64,000 nucleotides of DNA from an uncultured bacterium (GCA_964417675.1 CAYQJL010000282.1:68077-132076); one strand, 5' to 3'; numbered from the stretch's first letter, positions 5,611 through 63,840 are shown. Numbers and translations are program-made. The notes: generated from the sequence alone by a model not told the origin.

Positions 5611-6921
5611 CTATTCGTAGCGCAGTGCTTCAATCGGATCCTGTTTGGAGGCGTGCCAGGCAGGATAGAGCCCGAAGAATATACCGATCATCGTCGAGAG
5701 AGCCAGAGCAAAAAAGACCACCCCCAGCGGCAAGGCGGCCGGCAGCGGCGACACCCAGGAGACGATCAGGGCCAACCCAGCGCCCCCCAGGATGCCCACC
5801 GCCCCACCAATCAGGGTCAGGGTGACCGCCTCGGCGAGAAACTGCAGCAGCAGATCGCTGCGCCGGGCGCCGACCGCGCGACGCACCCCGATTTCGCGGG
5901 TTCGCTCGCGCACGGAGACCAGCATCATATTCATGATTCCGATGCCGCCGACGGCCAGGGCGATCCCGGAGACCAGGAGCATCACCGCATAGATCGCACG
6001 CGTGAGGTTCGTGTAGAGCGCCATCAGGGTTTCCTGGGTGGTGAGGCCGAAATCGTTGTCTTCCTCGGCCCCCAGCCCGCGGCGGCGGCGCATCAGCGAT
6101 TCGACCTCCTCCCGGGCCATATGCATCTGCGGCTGGGTGTGCGGCTGAATCAGGATGTAGTCCAGGATCTCGCCCCAGCCGCGCTCCTGTTGCAGGGTCG
6201 TGACCGGAACCGCCACGACCTCATCCTGGTTGTTGCCCAGGATCTGCCCCTTGGCGTCGAAGACGCCGATGACCCGGTAGCGATAGGATCCCGCCCTGAC
6301 ATCCTGGCCCAGCGGGTCGATGGCGCCGAAGAGAACATCGGCCACGTCCGCACCGAGGACACAGACCCGTGCCCTCGCGAGCACCTCGCCCCCGGTGAAG
6401 AACCGTCCCCGCGACAGACTCCGATCCTCGACGGCCGGCATGTCGGCGCCGGTGCCCTGGATCGTGATCGGCTTGGTCTCCTCGGCCTGCCAGGCGACCG
6501 TCTGGGTGGTGGCCGCATTCGGACAGACCATCGCCACCGACGCGCACTGCTCGAGGATGGCCTCGGCATCCTGCAGCGTCAAATCCGGGCGCGTCTCACG
6601 CCGCCCGGGTCCCCCGACCTGGATGCTGGCCTCATGCTTGGTCAGGTAGATGCTGCCCGATCCCAGTGACGCCAAGCTCTTCGCCATGCTCCGGTCGAGA
6701 CCGGAGAGAATGGCGGCCATCGCCACGACGGTGCCCACGCCGATGACAATACCCAGCAGGGTCAACGCGCTGCGCAACTTGTTCGCGAGCAACGCGCGCA
6801 GGGCAATCCGAACGCTTTCGGCCAGCAGGCTGGCCGATCCTCGCACGCGCTCGGACCGGGCGAGCCACGGGCGCGGGCCCGCGGTCGGCCTTGGCAGCGC
6901 TGTTGGCGGCAACGACGTCAT
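5611..6921 (-). CDS. ABC transporter permease, MacB/FtsX family (second permease of the efflux operon)
   Basis: Four TM helices, a large periplasmic loop and the FtsX-type C-terminal motif ([24 protein letters not shown]). ORF runs to 7080; I place the start at ATG 6921 (MTSLPP), 7 nt after the stop of the upstream permease. Confidence 0.8.
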
Positions 6922-6928
6922 CGACTCC

Positions 6929-8152
6929 CTACTTCTCGTGGCTGAGGGCCTGGACCGGTGATAGCGCGGCCGCCCGTGACGCGGGATAGAGCCCCGCGCC
7001 CAACCCCACCAGGCCGGCCAGTGCCAGGCTGATGCCCACCGACCAGACCTCCACCCGGGCCGGCAGCGGCGTGAAAGCATTCACGCCCACGGCGATGATC
7101 CCGCCGATCAGAACTCCGATCAGCCCGCCTCCCAGCGCCAGCACCAGCGCCTCGACCAGAAACTGCCCCAGGATATCGCGGCGGCGCGCCCCGACAGCCT
7201 TGCGAATCCCGATCTCGCGTGTACGCTCGGTCACGGCCACCAGCATGATGTTCATCATCACGATCCCGCCGACGACCAAGCTGAGAGCCACGATCGCGAT
7301 CATGGCCAGATAGAAGAGCCCGGTCGTCTGCCGGTAGAACTCATAGTAGGTTTCGGAGGTTTGTATGCCGAAGTCCGGCTCGTCCCACGGTTCGAGACCG
7401 CGGGCGATCTTCATATGAAGCTGCGCCTCCTCCTGCGCCGCCTCAAAGAGCTCGGGGGCCGCCGCCAGCACCGTGATCTCCAGGGAGCCACCGCGGCCGT
7501 AGAGCTGCTGGAAGGTATCGAGCGAGATCAGGGCCACGTTGTCGCGGGATTGCCCCAGGATCTTCCCCTGCGCGGCAAGAACGCCGATCACCCAGAATGT
7601 ATCGCCTGCGATCCGGACCTGCTGGCCGAGCGGCTCGATGGCCCCGAAGAGGGGCTCGGCGATATCAGCGCCGATCACCACCGCCCGGGTCCCCGAGACG
7701 CCCTCCTCCAGCGTGAGATGGCGGCCGGCCGCCAGGCGGTAGGCATCCCCCAGCAAGGGATAGTCGCCACAGATCCCGGTCACCCGCACGTCGCGGGCCT
7801 TCTCCCCCCGCCAATCGAAATCAACCATCCGGCCCACCGAAGGCACGATCGCCGCGGCCGTGGTCATCCGCTCCTCGAGATAGCGGGCCTGCTCCCGGCG
7901 GATATCCTTGCGACGCAGGGCCTGGAACCAGTCCTGCTCGCTCGTGATCATGCCGAACTTCCCGATGCTGAAGGTGTGCGACCCCAGGGAGAGCATCTCC
8001 TGCGCCACATAGCGATTCAGGCCCTGCGTGATCGCAACGACCGAAACCACCGAGACGACGCCGACCACCGTTCCCAGGACGGTCAGGAGAGAGCGCATCC
8101 GGTTGGCCGACAGCGCCACCATGGCGCTCTTGATGGCCTCCCACAACTGCAT
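6929..8152 (-). CDS. ABC transporter permease, MacB/FtsX family (first permease)
   Basis: 407 aa with the FtsX motif (MNIMLVAVTERTREIGIRKAVGARR). It is a paralog of the downstream permease (conserved TREIG motif, only moderate overall similarity), which suggests a heterodimeric LolC/LolE-like pair. Confidence 0.85.
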   Translation of the reverse strand: MQLWEAIKSAMVALSANRMRSLLTVLGTVVGVVSVVSVVAITQGLNRYVAQEMLSLGSHTFSIGKFGMITSEQDWFQALRRKDIRREQARYLEERMTTAAAIVPSVGRMVDFDWRGEKARDVRVTGICGDYPLLGDAYRLAAGRHLTLEEGVSGTRAVVIGADIAEPLFGAIEPLGQQVRIAGDTFWVIGVLAAQGKILGQSRDNVALISLDTFQQLYGRGGSLEITVLAAAPELFEAAQEEAQLHMKIARGLEPWDEPDFGIQTSETYYEFYRQTTGLFYLAMIAIVALSLVVGGIVMMNIMLVAVTERTREIGIRKAVGARRRDILGQFLVEALVLALGGGLIGVLIGGIIAVGVNAFTPLPARVEVWSVGISLALAGLVGLGAGLYPASRAAALSPVQALSHEK

Positions 8153-21512: not shown

Positions 21513-24500
21513 CTAGAAGTCGTAGCCGATCGACAGCTCACCCTTGGCCTTGCCCGCCCAGCGCGACAGCTCGCTGCGCCGCACCAGATCCCAACGCAGG
21601 ACGAAGATGCCGAGATTGACGGACGCGCGCAAGCCCACGGAAGCCCTCAGATCCTCGAGCAGTAGATCCCCACTGCCCTCGTCCGTCCGGAATGCGCGGA
21701 ACTGCTCGGGCTCATCCCAGGCCGCTCCCACGTCACAGAAGAGCGCCCCACGCACGCCACCGATCAACAGCGGCAGCGGCCAGGCCATGTAGAATGCTTC
21801 GATGAAGGGGAATCGAAACTCCAGATTCACGAACGCGATCTTGGCCCCGTAGAGCGGATGATCCGCGAATCCCCGCAGCGTGTAGGGCCCTCCGAAGATC
21901 AGCTTGCGATCCTCCTCGCCCCACTCGCCCGCAAACACGCCCCGCAGGGCCAAGGCGTAGTAACGATGAATGTTATGGTAGCGGCGGTAGTCCAGGGAGA
22001 ACCCGTATGAGGCCCGCTGCCCGATGGTCGCGTAGGCCGACGCACGTGAGCGGCGCCCGGCCAGTGGTCCGGTCGGCCCCCAGAGAGCGGAGTCATACAC
22101 CCAGGCCATCTCCGGGCGCAGATACCACGCATCGCTCTTGCGCTCGGTCCACCTGCAGTTCCAGGGATCGTTCGCACCCTCGTCGGCACAGGTGTAGAGG
22201 TAGCGTTTCTCCTGAACGATGTCGAGGCCGGCCTCGAACCGGCGGAACCGCGAGACCGAATGCAACCACACCGCCCGCATGCCCCGCAGAAGGCGCTGCT
22301 CGAAATCCTCCAGATAGCCCGGGACACCGCTGTACCCGTACCCCGTCCAGTACTGGTACAGACCGATGCCGAAGGAGGGCCGCGACCCCAGATCGCTGTA
22401 GGCAAGCAGGTAGTTGCCCTCTTCCAGGGAGCCGGCCACATCGAGGGCCAGCTGGAGGTTCTTCTCGCCCAGGATGTCGGAGAAGACGAGCATAGATTGG
22501 GCCAACACGCCGAAGCCCGACGCGTACAGGCCCCCGGCCTGGGCATAATCAATGGACAGGCGTGGTCTGTATGGCCGGTCTTCCACCTCGAGTGAGTCGG
22601 TCAGCTCGAACGTCTCCTCGTACAACGATCCAAGATCCACGTTCTTCGACGCGGGCGGATCAAACCGAACCGGCCGCGCCGGGGGTTCGGGCGGCACCGC
22701 CAGCGCGGCCGCCTCACCCTCCACCCCGATCTGGCCCGCGGACCCCTCGGCGGGATCCTCGACGGGACCCCGCGCGCAAGCTTCAGCAGAAGCCTCGGCG
22801 GGCCCCTCGGCGAAGGCCTCCCCAGCAGCCTGGTCGTCCCGCGATGCCCAGACCGTGGCCTGATCGAGGGCGCCTAACGGATCCCGCATCGCGTAGAGAT
22901 TCAATCCCCCGTCTTCGTACACGCTGAAGACGACCCGGTGGCCGTTGTCCGACAGGCTGGCCGCGGTGCCGGTCTCCGTGATGCCGGAGACCCCGGTCAT
23001 CAGGTCAGTGAGCTGGTAGTCCTGGTCGGTCTGCAGGTCGCGCACGAAAAGGTTGGCGGTGCCGGTGCGGTCCGAGACGAACAGGAGATGACGCCCGTCG
23101 GGAAACCACTGCGGGCTGACCTGCTTGCCGCTTTGATTCGGCAGCAGGTCCATGCGGCCGCTGCTCACGTCCAGCGTGGCAAGACGCCAGGGCGAGAAGG
23201 ACTCGTCTTCCCGCGCGCTCACGTAGCCCCGGTCGGTGACGAACACCAGGGTCGTGCCGTCCGGCGACCAGGCCGGCTGATCCGCCGACCAGCGGTCCTG
23301 CGTCAGCGCCGACACCCTGCCGCTCAAACGTTCGACCACATAGAGGTTCGAGCGCGCCTCGCGCAGGCCGACGAAGGCGATCCGGCGGCCGTCCGGTGAG
23401 AAACAGGGCGAGACCAACTCATCCACATCCGGCCGGTAACGTTCCACCACCTCCCGGGTGCGGACATTGACAACGATCAAGTGCTCGCGGCCACCGCTGC
23501 GCGTCACGAGAACGATGTGATCGCCGTCCGGCGCCCAATCGATCGCCGAGCGGAAGAAGCGAAAGGTCTCGAACTCCTCCTTCCGTTGGCCGCGCAGCAG
23601 GCGCCGTTCGTGGCTGCCATCCAGGGCCGAGGCCAGGTAGACGTCCGTGTAGAGAGACTCATCCGAGATGTAGACCATCTCGCCGCCACCGGGCGAAACC
23701 GCCGGGCTGATGTAGAAGGCGGCATGGCGTTCGGCGTGATTCGTGAGCCGACGTCCATAGGCGGAGGCCTTCTTGCGCCCCAGCAACTCCGGCAGGTAGC
23801 GATGTCTCAGCGTGTCGGCCCAATCCTCCGATAGCTTCGCAATCGTCAGTCCGATCGACTCCGACGTTCCACGCTCGAGGTTGTTGCGGCGGGCCAGCGA
23901 GCGAAACCACGCACCCAGCATCTCATCCCCGAACTGCTCCCCGATGTGCGCGACCAGCGACTGCCCGAACCGATACACGCGGATGTCGCCAACCCGCGCG
24001 AGCTGCTCCACACTGAGCAGGCCGCCGCTCATCAGCGCATCCCGCATCCACATCCGCGTATGATGGTTCATACCCGGTGTGCTGAGGTACTCGGCCATTC
24101 CCTCCATGACCCACAGCGGGGGCGCCCAGGCAATGGGATCCAACGACCGTCCGAAGCCGGAGGTGCTGAGGATGTCGATCTGAAACGCATGCACCAGCTC
24201 GTGGGTGATGACGTGATCGAGGTCCGCGTGGGATCCGGTGAATGGCACGACCACTCTGCGCTTGAGCAACTCGGTCACTCCGCTGGTGCCTTCACCGATC
24301 AACCCGCGGATGGCCCGGGTCTCACGGAATTCGGTCTGGGAGGCATAGAACAGGAAGGGAATCGGCTCGGCGATCTCGTGATCGAGAATCCGGCTCAGGC
24401 GCTCATAGGCGCGCTCTGCCAAGAATAGTGCTTCGAGGGCGGTCTCGCGCTCTTCCAGATAGTAGTGGAAGTCGAAGTTCGGACTGTGCAGGACGCGCCA

Positions 24501-24650
24501 ATCACGCTGGTGGCGGTCCACCTTGTTCTGACCAAACGCCTGTGCCTCCCCATCGGTCACGTTCATCAGCAGGGTGAGCGCCGCCAGCAGCAGTAGACGC
24601 AGACCATTGGCGCTTCCTGTCCGACCCATTCCCATTGGCCGCCTCCTCAT
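21513..24650 (-). CDS. Large secreted/outer-membrane protein: HExxH metalloprotease-like domain + TolB-like PD40 beta-propeller + C-terminal Omp85/surface-antigen-like beta-barrel
   Basis: Signal peptide from ATG 24650 (MRRRPMGMGRTGSANGLRLLLLAALTLL). HELVH zinc motif, PD40-type repeats (SPDGRRIAFV, SPDGTTLVFVTDR, FPDGRHLLFVSDRTG), and a C-terminus ending ...GELSIGYDF, typical of an OM beta-barrel terminal aromatic. The ORF is also open in-frame upstream through the 12-bp repeats to 25076. Confidence 0.75.
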   Translation of the reverse strand: MRRRPMGMGRTGSANGLRLLLLAALTLLMNVTDGEAQAFGQNKVDRHQRDWRVLHSPNFDFHYYLEERETALEALFLAERAYERLSRILDHEIAEPIPFLFYASQTEFRETRAIRGLIGEGTSGVTELLKRRVVVPFTGSHADLDHVITHELVHAFQIDILSTSGFGRSLDPIAWAPPLWVMEGMAEYLSTPGMNHHTRMWMRDALMSGGLLSVEQLARVGDIRVYRFGQSLVAHIGEQFGDEMLGAWFRSLARRNNLERGTSESIGLTIAKLSEDWADTLRHRYLPELLGRKKASAYGRRLTNHAERHAAFYISPAVSPGGGEMVYISDESLYTDVYLASALDGSHERRLLRGQRKEEFETFRFFRSAIDWAPDGDHIVLVTRSGGREHLIVVNVRTREVVERYRPDVDELVSPCFSPDGRRIAFVGLREARSNLYVVERLSGRVSALTQDRWSADQPAWSPDGTTLVFVTDRGYVSAREDESFSPWRLATLDVSSGRMDLLPNQSGKQVSPQWFPDGRHLLFVSDRTGTANLFVRDLQTDQDYQLTDLMTGVSGITETGTAASLSDNGHRVVFSVYEDGGLNLYAMRDPLGALDQATVWASRDDQAAGEAFAEGPAEASAEACARGPVEDPAEGSAGQIGVEGEAAALAVPPEPPARPVRFDPPASKNVDLGSLYEETFELTDSLEVEDRPYRPRLSIDYAQAGGLYASGFGVLAQSMLVFSDILGEKNLQLALDVAGSLEEGNYLLAYSDLGSRPSFGIGLYQYWTGYGYSGVPGYLEDFEQRLLRGMRAVWLHSVSRFRRFEAGLDIVQEKRYLYTCADEGANDPWNCRWTERKSDAWYLRPEMAWVYDSALWGPTGPLAGRRSRASAYATIGQRASYGFSLDYRRYHNIHRYYALALRGVFAGEWGEEDRKLIFGGPYTLRGFADHPLYGAKIAFVNLEFRFPFIEAFYMAWPLPLLIGGVRGALFCDVGAAWDEPEQFRAFRTDEGSGDLLLEDLRASVGLRASVNLGIFVLRWDLVRRSELSRWAGKAKGELSIGYDF

Positions 24651-24779
24651 GGCCTCATGCTCCAGGGCGCCCACCAGCGTCCCACCCCTGGCTGACGGGG
24701 GGACAATCCTCAGAAACCGCCGGAAAACAAACCAGTTCCGGATTGCACCGTTCCGGCTCAGGAATGAGGTTTCCAACTC

Positions 24780-24960
24780 CAGGCATGTCTTCAGGCACAT
24801 CTCCAGGCACCTGGCTAGGCACGTCTCCAGGCACACGTCTCCAGGCACGCGTCTGGGCACCTCTCCAGGCACGTCTCCAGGCACGTGTCTGGGCACCTCT
24901 CCAGACATGTGTCTAGGTGCGTGTCCAGGCACGTCTCCAGGCACGTGAGGCACGTGTGTG
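24780..24960. repeat. Imperfect 12-bp tandem repeat array (consensus AGGCACGTCTCC, about 14 units)
   Basis: Direct reading of the sequence. Intergenic, between the GGDEF gene stop (25115) and the protease gene start (24650). The array preserves reading frame (VPGD/VPRH tetrapeptide repeats in the six-frame ORF). Confidence 0.85.
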
Positions 24961-25114
24961 CGCATGTGTCTTTGCAGACTCGCAGGGTGACCCGAGGAGG
25001 TCAAGGGCGGGCATCGCCGAGCACAACAAGGCCGAGCAACCCCCCATCCATGCGGGCGGCTGTGACCGGAGCGCAACCGAAGGCCGGTGGGGTATGCACG
25101 GACGGGACGCGGAT

Positions 25115-31886: not shown

Positions 31887-31986
31887 GGCTCTCTGCGGCC
31901 GGTCATCGTCCGTTGCGGCCGGTCATCGCCCGTTGCGGCCGGTCATCGCCCGTTGCGGCCGGTCATCACCCGCTGCGGGCGGTCAT
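31883..31986 (-). promoter_or_regulatory. Chain of five overlapping 7-codon mini-ORFs generated by a 20-bp tandem repeat, ending in an ATGA overlap with the folD start codon
   Basis: On the minus strand the 20-bp unit GGCCGCAACGGGCGATGACC repeats five times. Every copy carries ATG ACC ... CGA TGA, so each 7-codon ORF (MTGRNGR; variants MTARSG and MTGRREP) stops with a TGA that overlaps the next ATG. The last TGA overlaps the folD ATG (CCATGACA). Confidence 0.7.
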
Positions 31987-32016
31987 CGCCCTTTGCGGCT
32001 CGACGCGGCCAGGCAG

Positions 32017-33588: not shown

Positions 33589-33894
33589 GCTGGAATCCTC
33601 CAGCAGCAGACCTCCCCCGCAGAGACCCCGCTGCAGAAAAAAGAAATCCCCACGTCTGCCGTGTGCTGCGGACTCATTGAACCTGGTTCGTCCAGGTGGG
33701 GCCTTTCACCGACCGTATCGAGCGCCCTGAAGACAGGGTTCCTCTACCGGCCGTTCCCGGGCCCCCTTGGGATTGCGTTGGCTCAAATCGTCCCGCTACC
33801 TACACGCGCAGGGCAGGGATTTCGAAACTGAATCGTTCCGCTCGAAACTTGTCACGGAATCGCCCCCCGAAGCGGCGATTCCACGGACTCTGTT

Positions 33895-34212
33895 TCAGTC
33901 AAGCAGGCTGGAGGGAGCCACCTCCTCCCGGACCGATGCATCCAGGGTAGACCCCAACTCCGCCACCCTCTGCTGCAACCATGTAGCCAGGTCGGTGGCA
34001 CGCGCCCGCTCTCGAAGAAGCTCGTCAGCGAGGTTCAGCGCCGTCAGCACGGCGACCCTCTTTCCATCAATTGTAGCACTGCTCTCCCTAACCTCGCTCA
34101 TCTTATCCGCAACATACGACGCCAATTCCGGTATCGAGGCGCCGGTCGGCTCTCCGGCCACCCGGTACTCGTCCCCCAGAATCGTGACCTTTGTGTATGT
34201 GGCGTCGCTCAT
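33895..34212 (-). CDS. zapA: Cell division protein ZapA
   Basis: 105 aa; N-terminal VTILGDEYRV plus a C-terminal coiled-coil is typical of ZapA. Confidence 0.7.
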   Translation of the reverse strand: MSDATYTKVTILGDEYRVAGEPTGASIPELASYVADKMSEVRESSATIDGKRVAVLTALNLADELLRERARATDLATWLQQRVAELGSTLDASVREEVAPSSLLD

Positions 34213-34309
34213 GGCTACCAGAGTCCCGATTCAAGCGGTTTCTGTCGGTGCCCTTTGGCCCCGATGCCCCCCCGCCGCGAACGTGGCACCCCACGCCCAC
34301 ACAAGGAGT

Positions 34310-34717
34310 CTAGAAATCCCGCTCGACCAAGTCAACCTTCTCGAGGATGGCGGCCAAACGATCGGAAACCTCCTCACGCTCAGCCTGCAAAACGGCATTC
34401 TCTTCTCGCAGTCTATCCACCTGTCCAATCGCGGCCAGCAGCTCGCCGAAGGTCTCAACGCCCGCTTCCTGCAAGAGACGATTCTGTTCCCCGCGCAGCC
34501 GCTGAGAGGTCTGGCGAAGCTCTTCGCGCTCCTCCCTCAGCTTGGAAATGTAGCGCACGGCCCCTTCGATCCGCTCAGACAGACGGTCGATCTCGTCTAT
34601 AAGTCCCTGTCCAGCAGTGGGTTCAGAAACTGGCGCCTTCATGGCCCCTCCGTCGTTGCTACCGGTGGTTCCTTGGCCCCTTCCTCCCGCAGCCGGCCGG
34701 ATGATCGCCGCGGCCAC
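34310..34717 (-). CDS. Small coiled-coil protein, ZapB-like (septation ring associated); identity tentative
   Basis: About 110-135 aa, entirely coiled-coil (LREEREELRQTSQRLRGEQNRLLQE). Located immediately upstream of zapA. Confidence 0.5.
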   Translation of the reverse strand: MAAAIIRPAAGGRGQGTTGSNDGGAMKAPVSEPTAGQGLIDEIDRLSERIEGAVRYISKLREEREELRQTSQRLRGEQNRLLQEAGVETFGELLAAIGQVDRLREENAVLQAEREEVSDRLAAILEKVDLVERDF

Positions 34718-34767
34718 AAACGCGCCGCGCGTGCTGGGACAGGCCGGCCCAAAGAGACAGGACTCGT

Positions 34768-35127
34768 CTACTGAGCCTGAACGCCACGGGCCGCTTCGAC
34801 AACCCGGGCGAAGGCCGCCATATCATGGACGGCCAGATCCGCCAGGACCTTGCGATCAAGATCGATCCCGGCCGTCTTCATGCCTGCGATCAGCGCGCTG
34901 TAGCTCATCCCATTCAGACGGGCCGCCGCGTTGATCCGCTGGATCCACAGCCGGCGCATCATGCGCTTACGCACCCGGCGGTCGCGATACGCATATTGCA
35001 ACCCGCGCATGAGATTCTCTTTGGCCACCCGATGCAGCTTCGAACGCCCTCCGAAGCCACCCTTGGCGCGACGCAAGACCTTGTTCCGGCGCGCGCGTCC
35101 TGGCACTACCGTTTTTGCTCTCGGCAT
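34768..35127 (-). CDS. rplT: 50S ribosomal protein L20
   Basis: 119 aa, [37 protein letters not shown]. Confidence 0.95.
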
Positions 35128-36338: not shown

Positions 36339-36493
36339 GAACCCTTCCCCCTATGTCGGATGAAGGAACGAGTATCTTAGGGGAACATGCCTGAACCTGT
36401 CAACTACATGCTTTCGAAGCGCCTGCCCGGTCCCGTCCGGCCCGGATCCCGTCGGGCCCGGGATCGAATCCCATCCGCCCGTCGAGCCTGGGA

Positions 36494-41828: not shown

Positions 41829-41912
41829 CACCCCACAATCCGGTTGCCGCACGCGCTTCGGTTGCCGCGCGCGCTTCGGTTGCCGCACGCGCTTCGGTTG
41901 CCGCGCGGGTTG
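41829..41912. repeat. 18-bp tandem repeat, about 4 copies (CGCTTCGGTTGCCGCRCG)
   Basis: Direct reading. Lies in the divergent region between the PAP2-M23 gene and yfiH. In frame it would encode (RQPKRA)n if the upstream ATG at 41888 is used. Confidence 0.85.
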
Positions 41913-55615: not shown

Positions 55616-56065
55616 ATGCTCGACATCCGCACCCACACCTTGACCTTCCCTTCCCAGGGATATGCCGACATCCTGGATTTGACGCCGGATACCGACTCCC
55701 TCCTCCACCGCGAAGCGCTGCGCGACGGGTCGGTGCTTCTCTTCACGCCCGGAGCTACGGCGGGGCTCTCCACGATCGAGTTCGAACCAGGCGCGGTGGC
55801 TGATCTGAAGGCTGCCATCGAGCGGCTGGCGCCCGAGGGCATCTCCTACGCGCATGATCGGCGCTGGGGCGACGGCAACGGCTTCTCGCACGTGCGGGCC
55901 GCCCTCATCAAGCCCAGTCTGGAGGTGCCGGTCAGCGGCGGAGAACTGATGCTCGGCACATGGCAACAGATCATTCTGCTGGACTTCGACAACCGTCCGC
56001 GGCAGCGAGCGGTGGTCTGTCAGCTGCGGGGAATCTTCGACAGCGGCCGGAACGATGCGACGTAG
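55616..56065 (+). CDS. YjbQ/UPF0047 family protein (secondary thiamine-phosphate synthase-like)
   Basis: MLDIRTHTLTFPSQGYADILDLT...GDGNGFSHVRAALIKPSLEVPVSGGELMLGTWQQIILLDFD. Start at ATG 55616, 7 nt after an AAGGAGAG Shine-Dalgarno. The track ORF begins earlier at GTG 55421. Confidence 0.75.
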   Translation: MLDIRTHTLTFPSQGYADILDLTPDTDSLLHREALRDGSVLLFTPGATAGLSTIEFEPGAVADLKAAIERLAPEGISYAHDRRWGDGNGFSHVRAALIKPSLEVPVSGGELMLGTWQQIILLDFDNRPRQRAVVCQLRGIFDSGRNDAT

Positions 56066-56085
56066 CCCAAGAAGCGGCCCAAGAA

Positions 56086-56120
56086 GCGGCGCCGGATCGT
56101 ACATGCCGATCCGGCGCCGC
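56086..56120. terminator. Perfect 14-bp-stem hairpin between convergent genes (candidate bidirectional terminator)
   Basis: GCGGCGCCGGATCG-tacatgc-CGATCCGGCGCCGC, 20 nt after the yjbQ stop. There is no strong T tract, so confidence is modest. Confidence 0.4.
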
Positions 56121-56346: not shown

Positions 56347-57258
56347 CTACCATCCCGTCTGGCCTTCGCACCCGACGGAAACCGTGTCCCAATTCAAGTA
56401 GATTTCCCCTCCCGCCCGCGGCAACGCGATGATCTCAAAGGCTCCTCCGCGGCCCCCGGGAGTGGAACAGCCTTCCTCGAGAACGTATCGCGACAGCGAG
56501 ATCTGGAGATATCCATTGGCCGAATAGGTGGCGAATCCGTCCACACGAACATCCACATGAGCATGGTCGTGCAGGCCCAGGAAGACAGCCACAACCATGT
56601 GGCTCGAGAAGTCGACAGCTGGCATCACGACCATCGAATGCGACTCGTCGAGTGACTCGCGCAAGAGGTCGATCAACGCATCCTCATCGCGAATCACGAA
56701 TTCCGCCGCGCTCGGCCTCCGGGCATAATGCCCATGGAGCAGGCGCTCAACCGGGATGAACTCCACGCGCTCCTCCGGCTGTGGGCCGAAGCTGTGCAGC
56801 CAGATTCCCTGGAGGATGCCCACCAGGCATTGCTTCGCCGGTGACAACGACGCCGGATCCTCGAACTCGAATTGCGCCGATGACCCGCCACGGGTCACTC
56901 TGACAAAACCCAGCGAAGCACGCCCATTCGAATCCGTCCGAGCCGAGTCTTCGAGATCAGCGGCCCGCAAGGCATTTTCAAGTTCGCGCCAGGTCGCCGG
57001 TCCCAGCCATCCAGGATCGGCCCCCTCATCCACTTCCAGGAGCGTGATACGGCCCCCCGCGTCAATCGAGAGCCGCCCGGACTCGTGCGGGGACGCGAAA
57101 CTGATATTGTCCCAGGAGGCGTCTATCTCGTCGGGAGCCGTGGGGCTCCCCTGGCTACACCCGCCGATGGCCAGCCCAAGCAACAGGATCGAACCCAGCC
57201 ACAGGACGGTTCCCACAGCCCGGCATTGCTCCCCTTGTCTGAACTTCACATCGCGCAC
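56347..57258 (-). CDS. Hypothetical lipoprotein
   Basis: Lipoprotein signal (KFRQGEQCRAVGTVLWLGSILLLGLAIGGCS). Start placed at GTG 57258, 8 nt after a GGAGG Shine-Dalgarno, because the predicted sigma-54 transcription start falls at about 57271. No known domain. Confidence 0.55.
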   Translation of the reverse strand: MRDVKFRQGEQCRAVGTVLWLGSILLLGLAIGGCSQGSPTAPDEIDASWDNISFASPHESGRLSIDAGGRITLLEVDEGADPGWLGPATWRELENALRAADLEDSARTDSNGRASLGFVRVTRGGSSAQFEFEDPASLSPAKQCLVGILQGIWLHSFGPQPEERVEFIPVERLLHGHYARRPSAAEFVIRDEDALIDLLRESLDESHSMVVMPAVDFSSHMVVAVFLGLHDHAHVDVRVDGFATYSANGYLQISLSRYVLEEGCSTPGGRGGAFEIIALPRAGGEIYLNWDTVSVGCEGQTGW

Positions 57259-57280
57259 GGCAAAGACCTCCACTCCCTAC

Positions 57281-57297
57281 ACTGCAAGAGGAATGCC
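57281..57297 (-). promoter_or_regulatory. Candidate sigma-54 (-24/-12) promoter
   Basis: Minus strand reads CTGGCATTCCTCTTGCAG. GG and GC are spaced exactly as in the TGGCAC-N5-TTGCW consensus. The GC lies about 12 nt upstream of the Shine-Dalgarno of the lipoprotein gene. Confidence 0.5.
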
Positions 57298-57476
57298 AGA
57301 ACCCTCTTCCTGGGCATAATGCGTAACTATTCATCCTGAAATAAGTTACAACACCACTTCTTCGGGTGGTCTCGCCGCGCACCGGCCTTCCACCCGGAAA
57401 CCCGAGGTCTCTCTCAGAATCCTGAGACAAATGCACGCCTCGAGGTACCGTACAATCGAGATGCCCTGGCCGCTCG

Positions 57477-57570
57477 AACGGGCAGCCGGCAAGGATGCCT
57501 CGACTCCCGCCCACGGGCAGCCGGCAAGGATGCCTCGACTCCCGCACACGGGCAGCCGGCAAGGATGGCT
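57477..57570. repeat. 36-bp tandem repeat, 2.6 copies (ACGGGCAGCCGGCAAGGATGCCTCGACTCCCGCMC), a candidate enhancer-like array
   Basis: Direct reading. It begins 5 nt after the stop of the upstream gene and lies about 180-280 bp upstream of the sigma-54 -24 element. Each unit contains the GGCA-N4-TGCC and GCCGGC dyads. Confidence 0.8.
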
Positions 57571-57574
57571 GGAT

Positions 57575-58666
57575 CTACCGCGACGTGCTCACCTGCAGGC
57601 GCATGCCGATCGAGAGAGACAGCTTCTCGTAGTAGCGGCCGGAAACACGTGACTCGTTGCGCTCGTAGGCCACCCGCAGCTCCGGGGACCAACCGCCGGC
57701 CACCGGCCGGCTGAGCTGCAGGACGGCCCCCGATCGCGCCCCCAGGTCCGGGTCATCCGAATCCTCCCGAAGTCGGTAGATCCGATATTCGTCCCTGACG
57801 TACATCGGCGCCTCGAACCGGCCGACCAGCACCAGCAGCCAACGTCCCGGCAGCCGACTTCCCCAGTTCAGCTCCACCTCGTGCCGGCGGTGGTCATACC
57901 CGAAGCTGTTGCTGTGCACGCTGCGGAACCGGTAGGCCAGGGTCGCGCGCGGCAAGCCCAGGTGCTCCAACGTCAGCCCGGCCCAGAACTCCGTGCTGCG
58001 GTGCTTCTCCGCAAGCAGGCCGGAGGCGTTCTCTTCCGGCGCTGCCAAGGCATGCTCATCGAAGCTCATCCGGCCGCCCCCCAGTTCCAGGCCCCCTCGC
58101 AGGGCTGGCCCCAGGCTCCCATCCACACCGCTCTGAAGAGTGAACCCCTCCCGGGCGGTCGTTCCTCCGGCGGGCGTCTGCACCATGAACAGGCGGCCTT
58201 CCCAGCTGTAGCGCGTGACGCCCCCCGGGCGCGCTTCCCCGCCCACGGCCGCCTGATGACGCAGGTATCCGCGTGTGTCGTCCTGTCGATGCGTGCGCCA
58301 GGTGGTCTCCCATGCTGACCAGATGGGAATCGCGCGGGAACCTGTGCGCCAGCGCGCGGCTCCGTGAAGAATGTGGCGCGATTCACGGGGCGTTCGCCAG
58401 TAGCGGTCGGTCGAATAGCGCACTCGCCACTGGGCCGGCCAGTAGTCCGCGACGGTGCCCAGGGCAGTGAGCGTGGCGTCGGCCTCCAGGCGCAGGAAGC
58501 TCTCGCCCACATGCCGATCGGAGCGCACCTTCTCGAGGATGTTGTTGTCATAGCCCCAGGCAACGCGGCCCCCGGCCCGCGTCTGATAGGAGGTCGAACC
58601 AGTCGCGGGTGGAGCCACCCCCACCCACAGGCCGAGCACCCACCCGATCAGCAGCGCACATCTCAT
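57575..58666 (-). CDS. Hypothetical secreted protein, probable outer-membrane beta-barrel
   Basis: Signal peptide (MRCALLIGWVLGLWVGVA). Alternating amphipathic beta-strand pattern rich in W/Y/R. No recognised catalytic motif. Confidence 0.5.
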   Translation of the reverse strand: MRCALLIGWVLGLWVGVAPPATGSTSYQTRAGGRVAWGYDNNILEKVRSDRHVGESFLRLEADATLTALGTVADYWPAQWRVRYSTDRYWRTPRESRHILHGAARWRTGSRAIPIWSAWETTWRTHRQDDTRGYLRHQAAVGGEARPGGVTRYSWEGRLFMVQTPAGGTTAREGFTLQSGVDGSLGPALRGGLELGGGRMSFDEHALAAPEENASGLLAEKHRSTEFWAGLTLEHLGLPRATLAYRFRSVHSNSFGYDHRRHEVELNWGSRLPGRWLLVLVGRFEAPMYVRDEYRIYRLREDSDDPDLGARSGAVLQLSRPVAGGWSPELRVAYERNESRVSGRYYEKLSLSIGMRLQVSTSR

Positions 58667-58676
58667 GGCCGACTCC

Positions 58677-59651
58677 CTATCCATCTGCCCCGGCCTGACG
58701 CCGGGCCGCGCGCTCCAACTCCTGCGCCCGCAACAGCAGAGCGGCTCTGCGCAGCTGAAGCCACTCGGCCAACTCGCTCAGAACCGTCAGTGCCGTCCAC
58801 CGCTCCCCGCCCCGCCCATCCGGATCCAGGCCGGCCTGACGTCGCAAGGTCTCGACCTGCGCAATCTCGGTCGGGCTCAGCCCGACGTCGAGCCACAGGT
58901 TCGCTTCCGCGCCGGACAATGCCCCCCGTGCGAGCAGGTCATCTCCAAGCAGGCCTTGATCGCCCAGCAACTCGGCCATCTCACGGTCGACGGCCAGCCG
59001 CTCCGTCACCATCGCGCGCAAGCGATTCACATAGCGGTTCCAGGCCCACAGGCGATCGGCGAGATCACGCGACAGTCCCGCCCGAAACTCCAGGTCCTCG
59101 GGGCCGTCGCCGGGAGCCGCCTCGGGCAGGGCCACATCCACACGCCCGGAGGGCGCGTCGAGGGCCAGCAGCATCCCGCGCAACTCGATCAGGGTATCGC
59201 GCGCCGGCCAGCTCGGCGGGATGTCTTCTGAACGCAGGCTTCGGCGCACCGCCCCCAGAAGCCGCCCGGCCAGCGCCTCGCAATGCAGCTCCTGCCGCCG
59301 GAGATCCCCACTGAGTCGATCGTCCTGCTCGGCGAGGCTTGCCAGGCGGGCCATCGCGGCCCGATCGCGGTCCTGTCCCTGCGTGGATCCAGCCGATACG
59401 GCCGCCAACGAGTCACCGGTTTGCTTCAAGCCCATCCGTTCCCTCAAGAGGGAATCCACGACAGCCTGGCAGTCGAGCCAATCCCGCTTGAGCCGGATGA
59501 CCTCCTCCGGAAGCGTCTGCCCTTGCGCAGCGATCAAGCCGCCGACGGACAGCAAGAACAGGGCACAACTCACGCGTACCCGGCCCGGGCAACCGGCCGG
59601 ACCGCCGCCGGCGGAACGGCCCGGAGAACTCTTTCGGGCAGATGCGCTCAC
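58677..59651 (-). CDS. Hypothetical protein with signal peptide/TM, mainly helical
   Basis: 324 aa. The start overlaps the stop of the upstream response regulator by ATGA, so it is likely co-transcribed with the two-component system. Confidence 0.45.
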   Translation of the reverse strand: MSASARKSSPGRSAGGGPAGCPGRVRVSCALFLLSVGGLIAAQGQTLPEEVIRLKRDWLDCQAVVDSLLRERMGLKQTGDSLAAVSAGSTQGQDRDRAAMARLASLAEQDDRLSGDLRRQELHCEALAGRLLGAVRRSLRSEDIPPSWPARDTLIELRGMLLALDAPSGRVDVALPEAAPGDGPEDLEFRAGLSRDLADRLWAWNRYVNRLRAMVTERLAVDREMAELLGDQGLLGDDLLARGALSGAEANLWLDVGLSPTEIAQVETLRRQAGLDPDGRGGERWTALTVLSELAEWLQLRRAALLLRAQELERAARRQAGADG

Positions 59652-61018
59652 GTCAGGCCGTACTTCTCCAGCTTGTAGTACAGGGCGCTCGGCTTGATCC
59701 GCAGGAGGCGGGCAGCTTCGCTCTTGACCCCGCCCGCCTGCTCCATCGCTCGCTCCACCAGCGCCTGCTCGAGCTCCCCCAGCGCCCTGTTCAGGGGCGG
59801 AATCCCCGCCGGCAGCGGAATGCTGGACGGCCCGGCCGGCTGCAAGAAGGCGAAGTCCGCCTCCGTGATCCGGTTCTGATCACAGAGCACCATCGCCCGC
59901 TCGAGCGCATTTTCCAGCTCACGCACATTCCCGGGCCAGCCATAGTGCGTCAGCAGCTTCAGCGCTGAATCCTCGATGATCACCGGGGCCCGGCCCAGCT
60001 GCTCGGCAATCCTGCGCGCGAAGTGGCGTGCCAGGAGAGGCACGTCTTCCTTGCGCTCCCGCAAGGGCGGGAGGTGGATCGGAATCACGTACAATCGGTA
60101 GAAGAGGTCCTCCCGAAAGGCACCCTCGCCCACCCGGGCCTTCAGATCCCGATGGGTGGCCGCGATCACGCGCGCATTGACCTGCAGGGTATGTTCACCC
60201 CCGACGCGCTCGAACTCGCGCTCCTGCAGAACTCGAAGCAGGCGCACCTGCACGCTGGGCGGGATGTCCGCGATCTCATCAAGGAAAAGCACCCCCCCAT
60301 CAGCCAACTCGAAGCGCCCCAGGCGTTGCCTCACGGCCCCGGTAAACGCTCCCCGTTCATGGCCGAACAGCTCGCTTTCGAGAACACCCTCGGCCAGTGC
60401 GCCGCAATTGACGCGCACAAACGGTCCCTCACGCCGGCCGCTGCGCATGTGGATGGCCCGGGCCACCAGTTCCTTGCCGGTGCCACTCTCGCCGGTAATC
60501 AGCACCGAGCTATCCGAATCGGCCACCTTCTCGATGGTCGCATAGACCGACTGCATCGACGCCGCGCGGCCGATGATCTGCCCATCGTTGAACGCATCCC
60601 GCACTTCTCGTTCGAGGAGCTCGCGCCGGCTACGTTCGACCGACAGCGCGCTGCGGTCACGCCGGACACGCAGCGCCTGACCCAGTTTCGCGGACAGGTG
60701 ATCCATGCGCACCGGCTTCGTGAGAAAGTCGAATGCGCCGGCCTGCATGGCTTCCACCGCTATCTCCACGGTGCCGAACGCCGTGAGCACAATGACCTCG
60801 ACAAATGGGTCGAGTTCCTTCGCCTTGCGTAACACGTCCATGCCGCTGAGACCGGGCAGCTTCAGATCGGTCAGAATGACCTCCGGGACCTCCTGCTCCA
60901 GCGCCTCGCACGCTTCCTCGCCGCTGAGGCACGCCCGCAGGCGATGGCTGTCCTCCAGGAGCTCCACCATGGCCTCCAGCAGCGTCTCGTTGTCTTCCAC
61001 CAGCAGAATGCGCCCCAT
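59648..61018 (-). CDS. Sigma-54-dependent Fis-family response regulator (NtrC-like enhancer-binding protein)
   Basis: Receiver domain (LLVEDNETL...DLKLPGLSG), AAA+ sigma-54 interaction domain (GESGTGKELVARAIH, GAFTGA), C-terminal Fis-type HTH. Confidence 0.9.
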   Translation of the reverse strand: MGRILLVEDNETLLEAMVELLEDSHRLRACLSGEEACEALEQEVPEVILTDLKLPGLSGMDVLRKAKELDPFVEVIVLTAFGTVEIAVEAMQAGAFDFLTKPVRMDHLSAKLGQALRVRRDRSALSVERSRRELLEREVRDAFNDGQIIGRAASMQSVYATIEKVADSDSSVLITGESGTGKELVARAIHMRSGRREGPFVRVNCGALAEGVLESELFGHERGAFTGAVRQRLGRFELADGGVLFLDEIADIPPSVQVRLLRVLQEREFERVGGEHTLQVNARVIAATHRDLKARVGEGAFREDLFYRLYVIPIHLPPLRERKEDVPLLARHFARRIAEQLGRAPVIIEDSALKLLTHYGWPGNVRELENALERAMVLCDQNRITEADFAFLQPAGPSSIPLPAGIPPLNRALGELEQALVERAMEQAGGVKSEAARLLRIKPSALYYKLEKYGLT

Positions 61019-61021
61019 GAT

Positions 61022-62536
61022 TCAGCCCCCCCTCACAGTCGACGGCCGCTCGGCGGGAGGCAGTTCGAGGATCAGGGCCGCCCCACCCCACCGGCTATCC
61101 TCAATCCGGACCGTCACCGCATTGCGCTCAGCCAGTTGTCTGACCAGCGCCAGCCCCAGTCCCGCCCCTTTGGCTCGGCCCGTTTGAAAGGGCTCGAATA
61201 CGATCGCGCGCAGATCCGGGGCGATTCCAGGACCATTGTCGGCAATCTCCAGGCGCACGGCGTGCCCGGCCGGTGTCTCTTTCATGCGCCATGACACCGC
61301 CAGGTGTCCCGAGGGTCCGGCAGCCTGCATGGCATTGCGCACCAGATTCAGAACCATCTGCCGCAGGTGATCCGGATCGCACCAGACGGAGAGCTCCGGG
61401 CCGTCCTGGCCGGTTTGCCCCTCGAACGACAGTCCCAGCGCGGCATTCTCGATGCATTCGCGAACCAAAGGGCCGATCCTCACGATTCCCGGCGATGGCT
61501 CCTTGGGACGGGCAAACTGCAAGAAACTACTGACGACCCGCTCCAGCCGCTCCCCTTCGGCCAGAATCCGCCCGGCCTGGCGGCGCTGCCTCTCTCCCAG
61601 GCTCTGGTCCCGCGACAGCATCTCACTCGAGAGAATCAGCCCCCCCAGCGGATTGCGGATCTCATGGGCCACCCCCCCCAGCATGGCCCTCAATTCCCGC
61701 TCCCGGTCGCGTACCGCCGAGCGCATCTGCTCGAGCGTTCGGGCCAGCACGCCGATCTCGTCGCCGCCCAGGTCGGGCACCGGTCGCTCAAGGCTGCCAC
61801 GGCCAATGTCTCCCGCCGCCGCGGCCAGCAGCCGCAACCGGCGGTTGAGCCGGCGGGCCAGCAGGACCGCGACCGCCATGAGAAGCAGTGTCCCGAGTAG
61901 CGCGATGCCGACCATGGTCCGGCGCATGCCCCCGATCGCCTCGAGCGAACCGGACTCGGCCGACACCAGAATCACGGCTTCCGGGGGGGGGGCAAGACCC
62001 GTACGCTCCGCTGCCGGAGTCAACTCGTCCGGGACCGTCGCGGGGGTGCTGAGCGAGATGCCGGCCAGTCCGATCTTCACGAAACGGCCGGACTCACTGC
62101 GAAGGAGAGGGCTGGAGGCTACCGCCCCGGCGCGAACCTGGCCGAGTTCACGGTCGAGCAGAGCCGCCCGGGCGGGCACATCACCCAGCCGGTACCGACC
62201 GGAAGTCTCGATGAGCACCTGGCCCTCGGGCGACCACACTCCCAGCCAGTCGGCCGCAATCTCACGCCGGATGCCCTCCAACCGCTGACGCAGCGACTGA
62301 GCGGTCCGGCTCTGGTCCTCTCCCGGCTCCAGCCGCATCAGGCCTTCCCAAGCCGCCGGCGAAATCGCCGCCCGCACCGTCGTGGCAAGGGCTTCGACCC
62401 GCAAGGTCATCTCGGCATCCAATGCCCGGCGGGCTTGACGCTCCAGGAGGAAACCGATGGCGAGCAAACAGGGAAGCGCGGCGGCCAAGAAGGCCCAGAA
62501 CAACTGGGCTCCCATTCCGCGTGGCACAGTCCGCAC
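61022..62536 (-). CDS. Sensor histidine kinase
   Basis: TM sensor region, HAMP, HisKA H-box (GGVAHEIRNPLGGL), HATPase (NLVRNAMQA...DNGPGI...GLGLAL). Confidence 0.85.
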   Translation of the reverse strand: MRTVPRGMGAQLFWAFLAAALPCLLAIGFLLERQARRALDAEMTLRVEALATTVRAAISPAAWEGLMRLEPGEDQSRTAQSLRQRLEGIRREIAADWLGVWSPEGQVLIETSGRYRLGDVPARAALLDRELGQVRAGAVASSPLLRSESGRFVKIGLAGISLSTPATVPDELTPAAERTGLAPPPEAVILVSAESGSLEAIGGMRRTMVGIALLGTLLLMAVAVLLARRLNRRLRLLAAAAGDIGRGSLERPVPDLGGDEIGVLARTLEQMRSAVRDRERELRAMLGGVAHEIRNPLGGLILSSEMLSRDQSLGERQRRQAGRILAEGERLERVVSSFLQFARPKEPSPGIVRIGPLVRECIENAALGLSFEGQTGQDGPELSVWCDPDHLRQMVLNLVRNAMQAAGPSGHLAVSWRMKETPAGHAVRLEIADNGPGIAPDLRAIVFEPFQTGRAKGAGLGLALVRQLAERNAVTVRIEDSRWGGAALILELPPAERPSTVRGG

Positions 62537-63721: not shown

Positions 63722-63840
63722 CTCTCGAACAGACCGCTATACGACAGGCCCGAGGCGCTATACGACAGGCCCGAGGCGCTATGCGACAGGCCCGAGCCGC
63801 TATGCGACAGGCCCGAGCCGCTATACGACAGGCCCGAGGA
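63722..63840. repeat. 21-bp tandem repeat, 5 copies (CTATRCGACAGGCCCGAGSCG)
   Basis: Direct reading. Lies between tRNA-Leu and the HDAC gene start. On the minus strand every unit carries an in-frame TAG. An ATG at 63844 opens an 8-codon uORF (MLLGPVV). Confidence 0.85.

Follow-up and report, generated by a model that had tools for sequence, protein, structure and literature searches.

A conserved sigma-54 promoter and a candidate enhancer dyad pair before an envelope lipoprotein gene beside an NtrC-type two-component system in an uncultured bacterium

In a stretch of 64,000 nucleotides (nt) from an uncultured bacterium (GCA_964417675.1 CAYQJL010000282.1:68077-132076; the window, meaning this whole 64-kb stretch), five genes on the minus strand encode a histidine kinase, an NtrC-type response regulator, two hypothetical proteins (hyp1 and hyp2) and a lipoprotein, and a sigma-54 promoter lies in the non-coding gap before the last of them. 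A preliminary description had proposed such a promoter next to an NtrC-type two-component system, a proposal that conservation in related loci supports, and had placed the activator and its kinase upstream on the same strand, as Pfam domains confirm, the regulator lying three genes upstream of the lipoprotein gene. The argument is carried by the domain content of the proteins and by the conservation of the module, the promoter and the dyad pair with their distances, all of which can be read directly from the loci compared. The features of the locus, with lengths in base pairs (bp) and amino acids (aa), are as follows.

61022-62536, minus strand: histidine kinase gene, 504 aa
59648-61018, minus strand: NtrC-type response regulator gene, 456 aa, starting 3 nt past the kinase stop
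58677-59651, minus strand: hyp1, 324 aa, with a 4-nt overlap with the regulator stop
57575-58666, minus strand: hyp2, 363 aa
Between hyp2 and the lipoprotein gene: non-coding gap of 316 nt
57478-57567: 35-bp tandem array, 2.6 copies, 98% matches, with a degenerate third copy to 57582
57426-57413, minus strand: candidate enhancer (upstream activating sequence) site 1, CTCAGGATTCTGAG, 14 bp, starting 128 bp upstream of the T of TGGCA
57406-57393, minus strand: candidate enhancer site 2, CTCGGGTTTCCGGG, 14 bp, starting 108 bp upstream of the T of TGGCA
57315-57352, minus strand: A+T-rich stretch between the dyads and the promoter
57298-57283, minus strand: sigma-54 -24/-12 promoter TGGCATTCCTCTTGCA, with GG at 57297-57296 and GC at 57285-57284
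57256-57273, minus strand: start region as read from the sequence, with a predicted transcription start at about 57272, GGAGG Shine-Dalgarno at 57271-57267 and GTG at 57258-57256
56347-57258, minus strand: lipoprotein gene (the target), 303 aa

The kinase, regulator, hyp1 and hyp2 genes are tightly packed, with a 3-nt gap, a 4-nt overlap and then no more than 10 nt between them, and are probably transcribed together; the 4-nt overlap between hyp1 and the regulator stop suggests translational coupling. We compared the locus across 12 lineages (the window, L002, L011, L017, L003, L007, L014, L019, L020, L022, L023 and L025), and the order kinase-regulator-hyp1-hyp2-lipoprotein is kept wherever a contig extends far enough upstream, in 11 related lineages in all. 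The module is usually flanked by PGK-TIM-SecG-HDAC on one side and YjbQ-ScpA-ScpB on the other. In L022 it is intact despite different flanking genes, which argues that the five genes travel as a unit.

The promoter region reads CTGGCATTCCTCTTGCAG on the minus strand at 57299-57282 and is oriented toward the lipoprotein gene, with exactly 10 nt separating GG from GC. The match in both elements and the correct spacing claimed in the preliminary description are therefore borne out, with its coordinates (57281-57297) off by 1-2 nt. A consensus scan gave a divided answer: the promoter is the sole exact match to TGGCA-N6-TTGCW in the 64 kb (0.14 expected; at least one in 13 of 100 shuffles), and a looser, cruder 14-position consensus score gives it 11/14, in a 13-way tie with 12 other places, while shuffled windows reach 11-14. 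These ties and shuffles make the window sequence alone only suggestive, and because the consensus score does not discriminate in a GC-rich window, we relied on conservation instead.

A -24/-12 element stands directly upstream of the lipoprotein gene in 12/12 lineages, nine of them with the form TGGCAY-N5-TTGCW, and with TTGGCACAGCGATCGCT (TGGCAC-N5-TCGCT) in L022, TGGCACGCCAATGGCG (TGGCAC-N5-TGGCG) in L023 and TGGCACTGTTCTTGAT (TGGCAC-N5-TTGAT, at 6960-6975, GA replacing GC at -12) in L025. It is retained even where the lipoprotein relatives are detectable by profile only (E 6e-16 and 1e-10), and column conservation is 0.88 in the 16-nt promoter core versus 0.57-0.66 immediately outside it. 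Eight lineages, tabulated in full, have GGAGG 11-12 nt past the core and a GTG or ATG another 8-9 nt on; L025 and L019, both mis-parsed by our script, show the same layout by eye. The distance from core to ribosome site is thus fixed in 10 of the 12 lineages, and two further distant ones keep the promoter and not that spacing. Because it is conserved in related loci, we take the -24/-12 promoter of the lipoprotein gene to be real. No sigma-70-like promoter was found on the gene strand of the gap between hyp2 and the lipoprotein gene. Elsewhere in the window, a second sigma-54-like sequence, CTGGCTACATGGTTGCAGCA (33971-33990, minus strand, 11/14), apparently lies inside or antisense to an open reading frame (ORF) at 33767-34774 and not upstream of a gene.

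Sigma-54 promoters usually have their transcription start 11-13 nt past the GC. Here the GC, at 57285-57284, sits 12 nt upstream of GGAGG, and this geometry places the predicted start near 57272, right at the Shine-Dalgarno sequence, and the leader before the GTG would be very short, about 14 nt. The start itself had earlier been put about 12 nt upstream of GGAGG, where it is the -12 GC that lies; the accompanying assignment of the GGAGG and GTG to a lipoprotein with a lipobox holds, its signal peptide and lipobox being confirmed by alignment.

Farther upstream, two dyads are conserved together with the promoter. Site 1 is near-palindromic (12/14 positions; arms CTCAG and CTGAG), and the two sites are 20 bp apart from start to start, about two helical turns, with centres at about -147 (site 1) and -127 (site 2) from the predicted start. 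A position weight matrix (PWM) trained on the other loci only gives site 1 a score of 21.2 bits, the top of the whole window on both strands, and site 2 a score of 16.4 bits, second in the whole window. Counted from TGGCA, site 1 lies at -126 to -128 and site 2 at -106 to -108 across nine lineages. In L022 and L023, the most distant, site 1 is found at -141/-142, 14-15 bp farther out; L022 has a site-2-like TTCGAAAATCGGAG at -110, so that its position is kept and the site separation is 32 bp, not 20, about one extra helical turn. In L025 the -24 element, both dyads and all spacings are kept despite the TTGAT at -12.

Column conservation amounts to 0.88 in site 1 and 0.83 in site 2 versus 0.53-0.60 in the flank, the linker and the 80-bp spacer, and the spacer between dyads and promoter is held in length to within 2 bp while its sequence is not conserved (0.55). 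Minimum GC content in this spacer (30-nt window) is 27% at the window locus and 23-53% in the relatives, 23-40% in 7/10 of them, with whole loci at 61-70%. Its A+T-rich stretch could possibly, on weak grounds, be a bend or an IHF/HU-type site; the IHF consensus, compared by eye, is matched well in L014 and L007 only and poorly in the window, and we therefore describe the stretch as A+T-rich only. NtrC-type enhancers classically consist of two dimer sites on one face of the helix that act by DNA looping on a closed sigma-54 complex, and the layout of the dyad pair, by analogy, appears to follow this classic geometry. The dyad pair is a much better enhancer candidate than the tandem repeat, and the regulator would presumably bind it.

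The regulator has the Pfam domains Response_reg (8.5e-25), Sigma54_activat (2.8e-71, over the full 168-position profile) and HTH_8 (2.5e-12). Its receiver aspartate, Asp51 in ...VILTDLKLPG..., is conserved in orthologs, which are 70-84% identical, and its GAFTGA loop is intact (ESELFGHERGAFTGA, at 60352) and invariant in 6 orthologs. This is the sole such motif in the 64-kb window, and the regulator is the sole enhancer-binding protein there. The last 13 residues of the helix-turn-helix (HTH) end, ...SALYYKLEKYGL, are nearly invariant across orthologs, and the protein matches solved NtrC1/NtrC4-type chains in the PDB over its full length. The regulator, judged from its sequence, shows each of the three features by which NtrC-type enhancer-binding proteins are defined. 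Its bit scores stay below the NCBIfam cutoffs for AtoC (432.8 vs 714), NtrC (422.4 vs 558.6), ZraR (400.7 vs 760) and GlrR (337.2 vs 763), which makes it an unnamed family member and not an NtrC ortholog. In the translated kinase, two hydrophobic segments surround a periplasmic stretch of ~175 aa and are followed by HAMP (2.7e-13), HisKA (1.7e-15) and HATPase_c (4.8e-21) domains in Pfam; no NCBIfam equivalog reaches its cutoff with this protein.

Taken together, we consider it likely that an envelope signal makes the kinase phosphorylate the regulator, and that the regulator in turn assembles on the dyad pair and switches on the sigma-54 promoter before the lipoprotein gene. The membrane kinase would sense a signal from the periplasm or envelope and phosphorylate Asp51 of the regulator; regulator dimers would then bind CTCAGGATTCTGAG and CTCGGGTTTCCGGG (centres ~-147 and -127) and assemble the active AAA+ ring. 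The intervening DNA, with its conserved length and A+T-rich stretch, would loop, allowing the GAFTGA loops to contact the sigma-54 holoenzyme in the closed complex at TGGCAT-N5-TTGCA, and the promoter would be opened by ATP hydrolysis. Transcription would begin near 57272 and yield a short-leader lipoprotein mRNA, and the 35-bp array would have no required role in the switch. In this mechanism we infer the sigma-54 dependence in vivo, the start site, the nature of the signal and the role of the lipoprotein.

Several points weigh against this mechanism. Taken from the window sequence alone, the promoter match is statistically unexceptional, and two lineages depart from the near-invariant GC block at -12, L025 with GA and L023 with TGGCG; the GA in L025 could be a sequencing error, a variant that is tolerated or the mark of a weakened promoter. 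L023 has no recognisable site 2, and the half-sites are short, with arms of 4-5 bp whose centres lie ~9 bp apart. The position of the dyads, at the hyp2 3' end and in L007 and L022 even across the stop codon, means that part of their conservation could have another cause. On the gene strand between hyp2 and the promoter no terminator was found, except a weak one overlapping the promoter itself, and because of this, read-through from the upstream genes may give basal lipoprotein mRNA. A regular-expression search for the RpoN box came back empty for the window and for 263 kb of related loci, a result of little weight given that no whole genome was among them; the presence of rpoN is suggested solely by the intact GAFTGA activator.

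The alternative that survives best, and which we nevertheless regard as unlikely, accepts the promoter as real and holds that the dyads are not its cognate enhancer. Their role would then be to bind a different regulator or to work at the RNA or DNA level where hyp2 ends, and either the adjacent regulator would have its targets elsewhere or another enhancer-binding protein would activate the promoter. Enhancer-binding proteins are often encoded away from their targets, and binding of this regulator to the dyads is a prediction from sequence; moreover, in some loci the dyads touch or cover the hyp2 stop codon, and site 1 could form a 5-bp RNA hairpin. Yet where site 1 has changed, the hairpin pairing is not kept (L014, CTCGATTTTCTGAT), and the dyad-promoter distance stays within 2 bp in nine lineages while the sequence between drifts, whereas the hyp2 stop ranges from overlapping site 1 (L007 and L022) to ~150 bp upstream of it (the window and L025). 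A fixed distance to the promoter combined with a variable hyp2 stop argues for coupling of the dyads to the promoter rather than to hyp2. The regulator is also the window's only enhancer-binding protein and always travels with the promoter, even into the different neighbourhood of L022, and the nearly invariant C-terminal part of its HTH fits the invariant core of the sites.

Much less probable is the proposal of the preliminary description that the tandem repeat is the enhancer bound by the regulator. The array does exist, in 2.6 copies and at the distance given for it, with a unit of 35 bp and not 36: two copies are near-identical, and a degenerate third reaches over the hyp2 stop. An independent assembly of the same organism (L016) ends inside the array and also shows it, so it is not an assembly artefact. 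Its position 181-270 bp upstream of the -24 element is within the working range of enhancers, and repeated 35-bp units could in principle recruit several dimers. However, the array is absent from 11/11 related lineages that keep the promoter, the regulator and the module. Its units have no internal inverted repeat of at least 14 nt, their dyad symmetry is limited to a 4-bp CCCG/CGGG, and their best score against the PWM of the conserved upstream motif is 0.5 bits. L002 also has a tandem array at the orthologous position (4130-4200), but its unit is an unrelated 12-bp sequence (GTCCGCTGACAG-like, x5) that begins inside the last hyp2 codons and is missing as an array in the close relative L011, where a single copy is found (6720-6760). 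The site just past hyp2 seems prone to independent repeat expansions, and the array in the window is probably a lineage-specific expansion in a hypervariable spacer and not part of the mechanism. As an RNA element or terminator the array was considered and rejected, since it folds like shuffled sequence (z -0.15) and no terminator-like site lies within it.

At least four other unrelated intergenic tandem arrays occur within the window, and the base rate of such arrays is accordingly high:

31894-31999: 20-bp unit, 5.3 copies
41841-41904: 18-bp unit, 3.6 copies
63735-63839: 21-bp unit, 5.0 copies
36425-36461: 16-bp unit, 2.4 copies

Several of the arrays in the window directly follow a gene's stop, with a co-directional gene coming next. 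A further 12/36-bp array at 24777-24946, with ~14 copies of CTCCAGGCACGT, lies inside a large ORF (21513-25076), which implies a repetitive protein segment.

Least credible of all is that the -24/-12 match is due to chance or is no promoter, with the lipoprotein gene as the last gene of a five-gene operon: the tied consensus score that shuffles equal, the lack of a detected terminator upstream of the promoter and the indirect case for rpoN would allow it, but TGGCA and the -12 block form conserved islands (0.88) in drifting non-coding DNA across 12 lineages, the distance from promoter to ribosome site is fixed in the ten closer ones and an intact GAFTGA activator accompanies the promoter throughout.

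The three proteins encoded beside the two-component system point to the cell envelope. Behind an N-terminal hydrophobic segment, hyp1 is rich in Arg, Glu, Leu and Ala, a part that is probably helical; all related loci that extend across this part have it in the same place. It gave no Pfam, NCBIfam or PDB sequence match, and its distant orthologs gave none in Pfam or NCBIfam. The AlphaFold model of hyp2 has a signal peptide and 16 strands (pLDDT 75.7, pTM 0.72), and Foldseek matches it to many outer-membrane barrels (E ~1e-10 to 1e-8), with the best superpositions on PgaA (4y25) and PelB (9h80_M). We predict from this model that hyp2 is a 16-strand outer-membrane beta-barrel; no Pfam or NCBIfam family was found for it, distant orthologs included.

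Read by eye, the signal peptide and lipobox of the lipoprotein run MRDVKFRQ...LWLGSILLLGLAIGG-C34-S (…LAIGG-C34). The lipobox follows [ILF]-[AG]-G-C, its Cys and the preceding Gly being invariant in 6 aligned members (LAGC, FAGC and IAGC in relatives), and two further Cys in the C-terminal domain are invariant. Only three close homolog clusters exist among 5.8 billion proteins, and a profile search of 1.84 billion representatives returned 27 clusters at E <=1e-10, mostly full-length relatives. The protein comprises an N-terminal domain of no recognised type and a PrcB-like C-terminal domain (~170-298). Distant matches to the profile cover residues ~170-298 only, and Pfam PrcB_C is above cutoff in 7/7 of those tested; one relative has a precomputed weak PrcB_C match, and the NCBIfam PrcB model matches 4/6 members weakly, the window protein with 16.8 bits vs a cutoff of 125. 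The window lipoprotein itself gave no match to Pfam PrcB_C (PF14343) even at E up to 5 and falls below the curated PrcB family threshold (PF14343 PrcB_C / NF033596). Its C-terminal ~130 residues therefore appear, from these profile matches, to be remotely related to PrcB_C-domain proteins. The structure model of the lipoprotein is weak (pLDDT 62), Foldseek against the PDB gave no match at E <=0.001, and PDB sequence searches with the lipoprotein profile and with hyp1 returned noise only.

We suggest, tentatively and as a rather doubtful possibility, that the locus is an undescribed envelope module in which the hyp2 barrel, a periplasmic helical hyp1 and the two-domain PrcB-like lipoprotein would form one cell-surface complex. 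The level of the lipoprotein subunit would be under the control of a dedicated sigma-54 two-component system, and the module would be apparently confined to Eisenbacteria-like lineages, nearly always between secG/HDAC and scpAB. The DNA itself comes from an environmental contig (JGI 3300001533 MLSed_10000029), and one related genome carries the label Candidatus Eisenbacteria. A metagenome scan with the lipoprotein alignment gave no matches, the source contig itself also not being returned.

Downstream of the module, between the convergent lipoprotein and YjbQ genes, lies one further element:

56086-56120: inverted repeat with arms 56086-56099 and 56107-56120, 14 bp and 100% complementary, around a 7-nt loop

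From its sequence this inverted repeat is likely a bidirectional terminator and the probable end of the unit. A 12-bp repeat (2.2 copies, 56065-56090) adjoins it. A few genes upstream of the module, a homolog of PorV (type IX secretion) is encoded in the same organism (L001, 1772-2722), in keeping with a diderm envelope and an FCB-group or Eisenbacteria-like organism.

What the locus offers is a clean, comparatively validated sigma-54 enhancer architecture in an uncultured lineage, with a promoter, phased dyads and a spacer of conserved length, and a candidate binding motif, CTCRGRWWTCYGRK, with which complete genomes may be scanned for the regulon. The locus also ties three uncharacterised envelope proteins to a single signalling system, and it is a reminder that a conspicuous tandem repeat close to a promoter can be misleading where intergenic arrays abound in the genome. 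The general understanding of sigma-54 regulation is unchanged: the locus is a well-conserved and conventional sigma-54 switch under two-component control. A literature search for Eisenbacteria and sigma-54 together found no paper in the library covered.

The textbook sigma-54 enhancer system is NtrB-NtrC acting at glnAp2 of E. coli. The present locus shares with it a kinase and a regulator of receiver, AAA+ and Fis-type HTH domains, and two adjacent dyads on the same helical face, ~110-150 bp upstream of GG-N10-GC; the L022 promoter TTGGCACAGCGATCGCT nearly copies what we take to be the glnAp2 promoter of E. coli, TTGGCACAGATTTCGCT. The site here, CTCRGRWWTCYGRK, is unlike the TGCACC-N5-GGTGCA of NtrC, the kinase differs from NtrB in being membrane-bound with a periplasmic domain, and the target is an envelope lipoprotein gene, not a nitrogen-assimilation gene. 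AtoS-AtoC are the best-scoring NCBIfam models for kinase and regulator, far below their cutoffs (131.5 vs 646 and 432.8 vs 714), and no ato genes lie nearby.

In Treponema denticola, PrcB is a lipoprotein that anchors and stabilises the outer-membrane protease complex of dentilisin (PMC8167434). The target described here is also a lipoprotein, and its C-terminal ~130 residues are, as set out above, apparently PrcB_C-related at a distance; it differs in having an extra N-terminal domain and in having no adjacent prcA or prtP genes. The module and its neighbours consist of the two-component system, hyp1, hyp2, YjbQ and ScpAB, with no protease genes nearby, and the analogy to PrcB therefore holds at the level of the fold only.

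Two further sigma-54 systems combine signalling with the envelope. QseE(GlrK)-QseG-QseF(GlrR) likewise has a lipoprotein gene in the locus of a sigma-54 two-component system. The QseG lipoprotein is co-transcribed in the two-component operon and acts on the kinase, and the sigma-54 target is the small RNA glmY. Here, in contrast, the lipoprotein gene itself carries the sigma-54 promoter, and the regulator reaches 337 bits against the GlrR cutoff of 763. ZraS-ZraR-ZraP, a sigma-54 system of envelope stress, resembles the locus in having a membrane kinase and a sigma-54 activator beside an exported envelope target, and ZraR is among the best NCBIfam and PDB matches of the regulator, yet below cutoff (400.7 vs 760). 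The differences are that the target here is co-directional and downstream instead of divergent, that it is a PrcB-like lipoprotein and not a ZraP/CpxP-type periplasmic protein, and that hyp1 and the gene for the 16-strand barrel lie between regulator and target. By analogy, the locus most resembles ZraSR-ZraP in its probable function and NtrC/glnAp2 in the geometry of its candidate enhancer.

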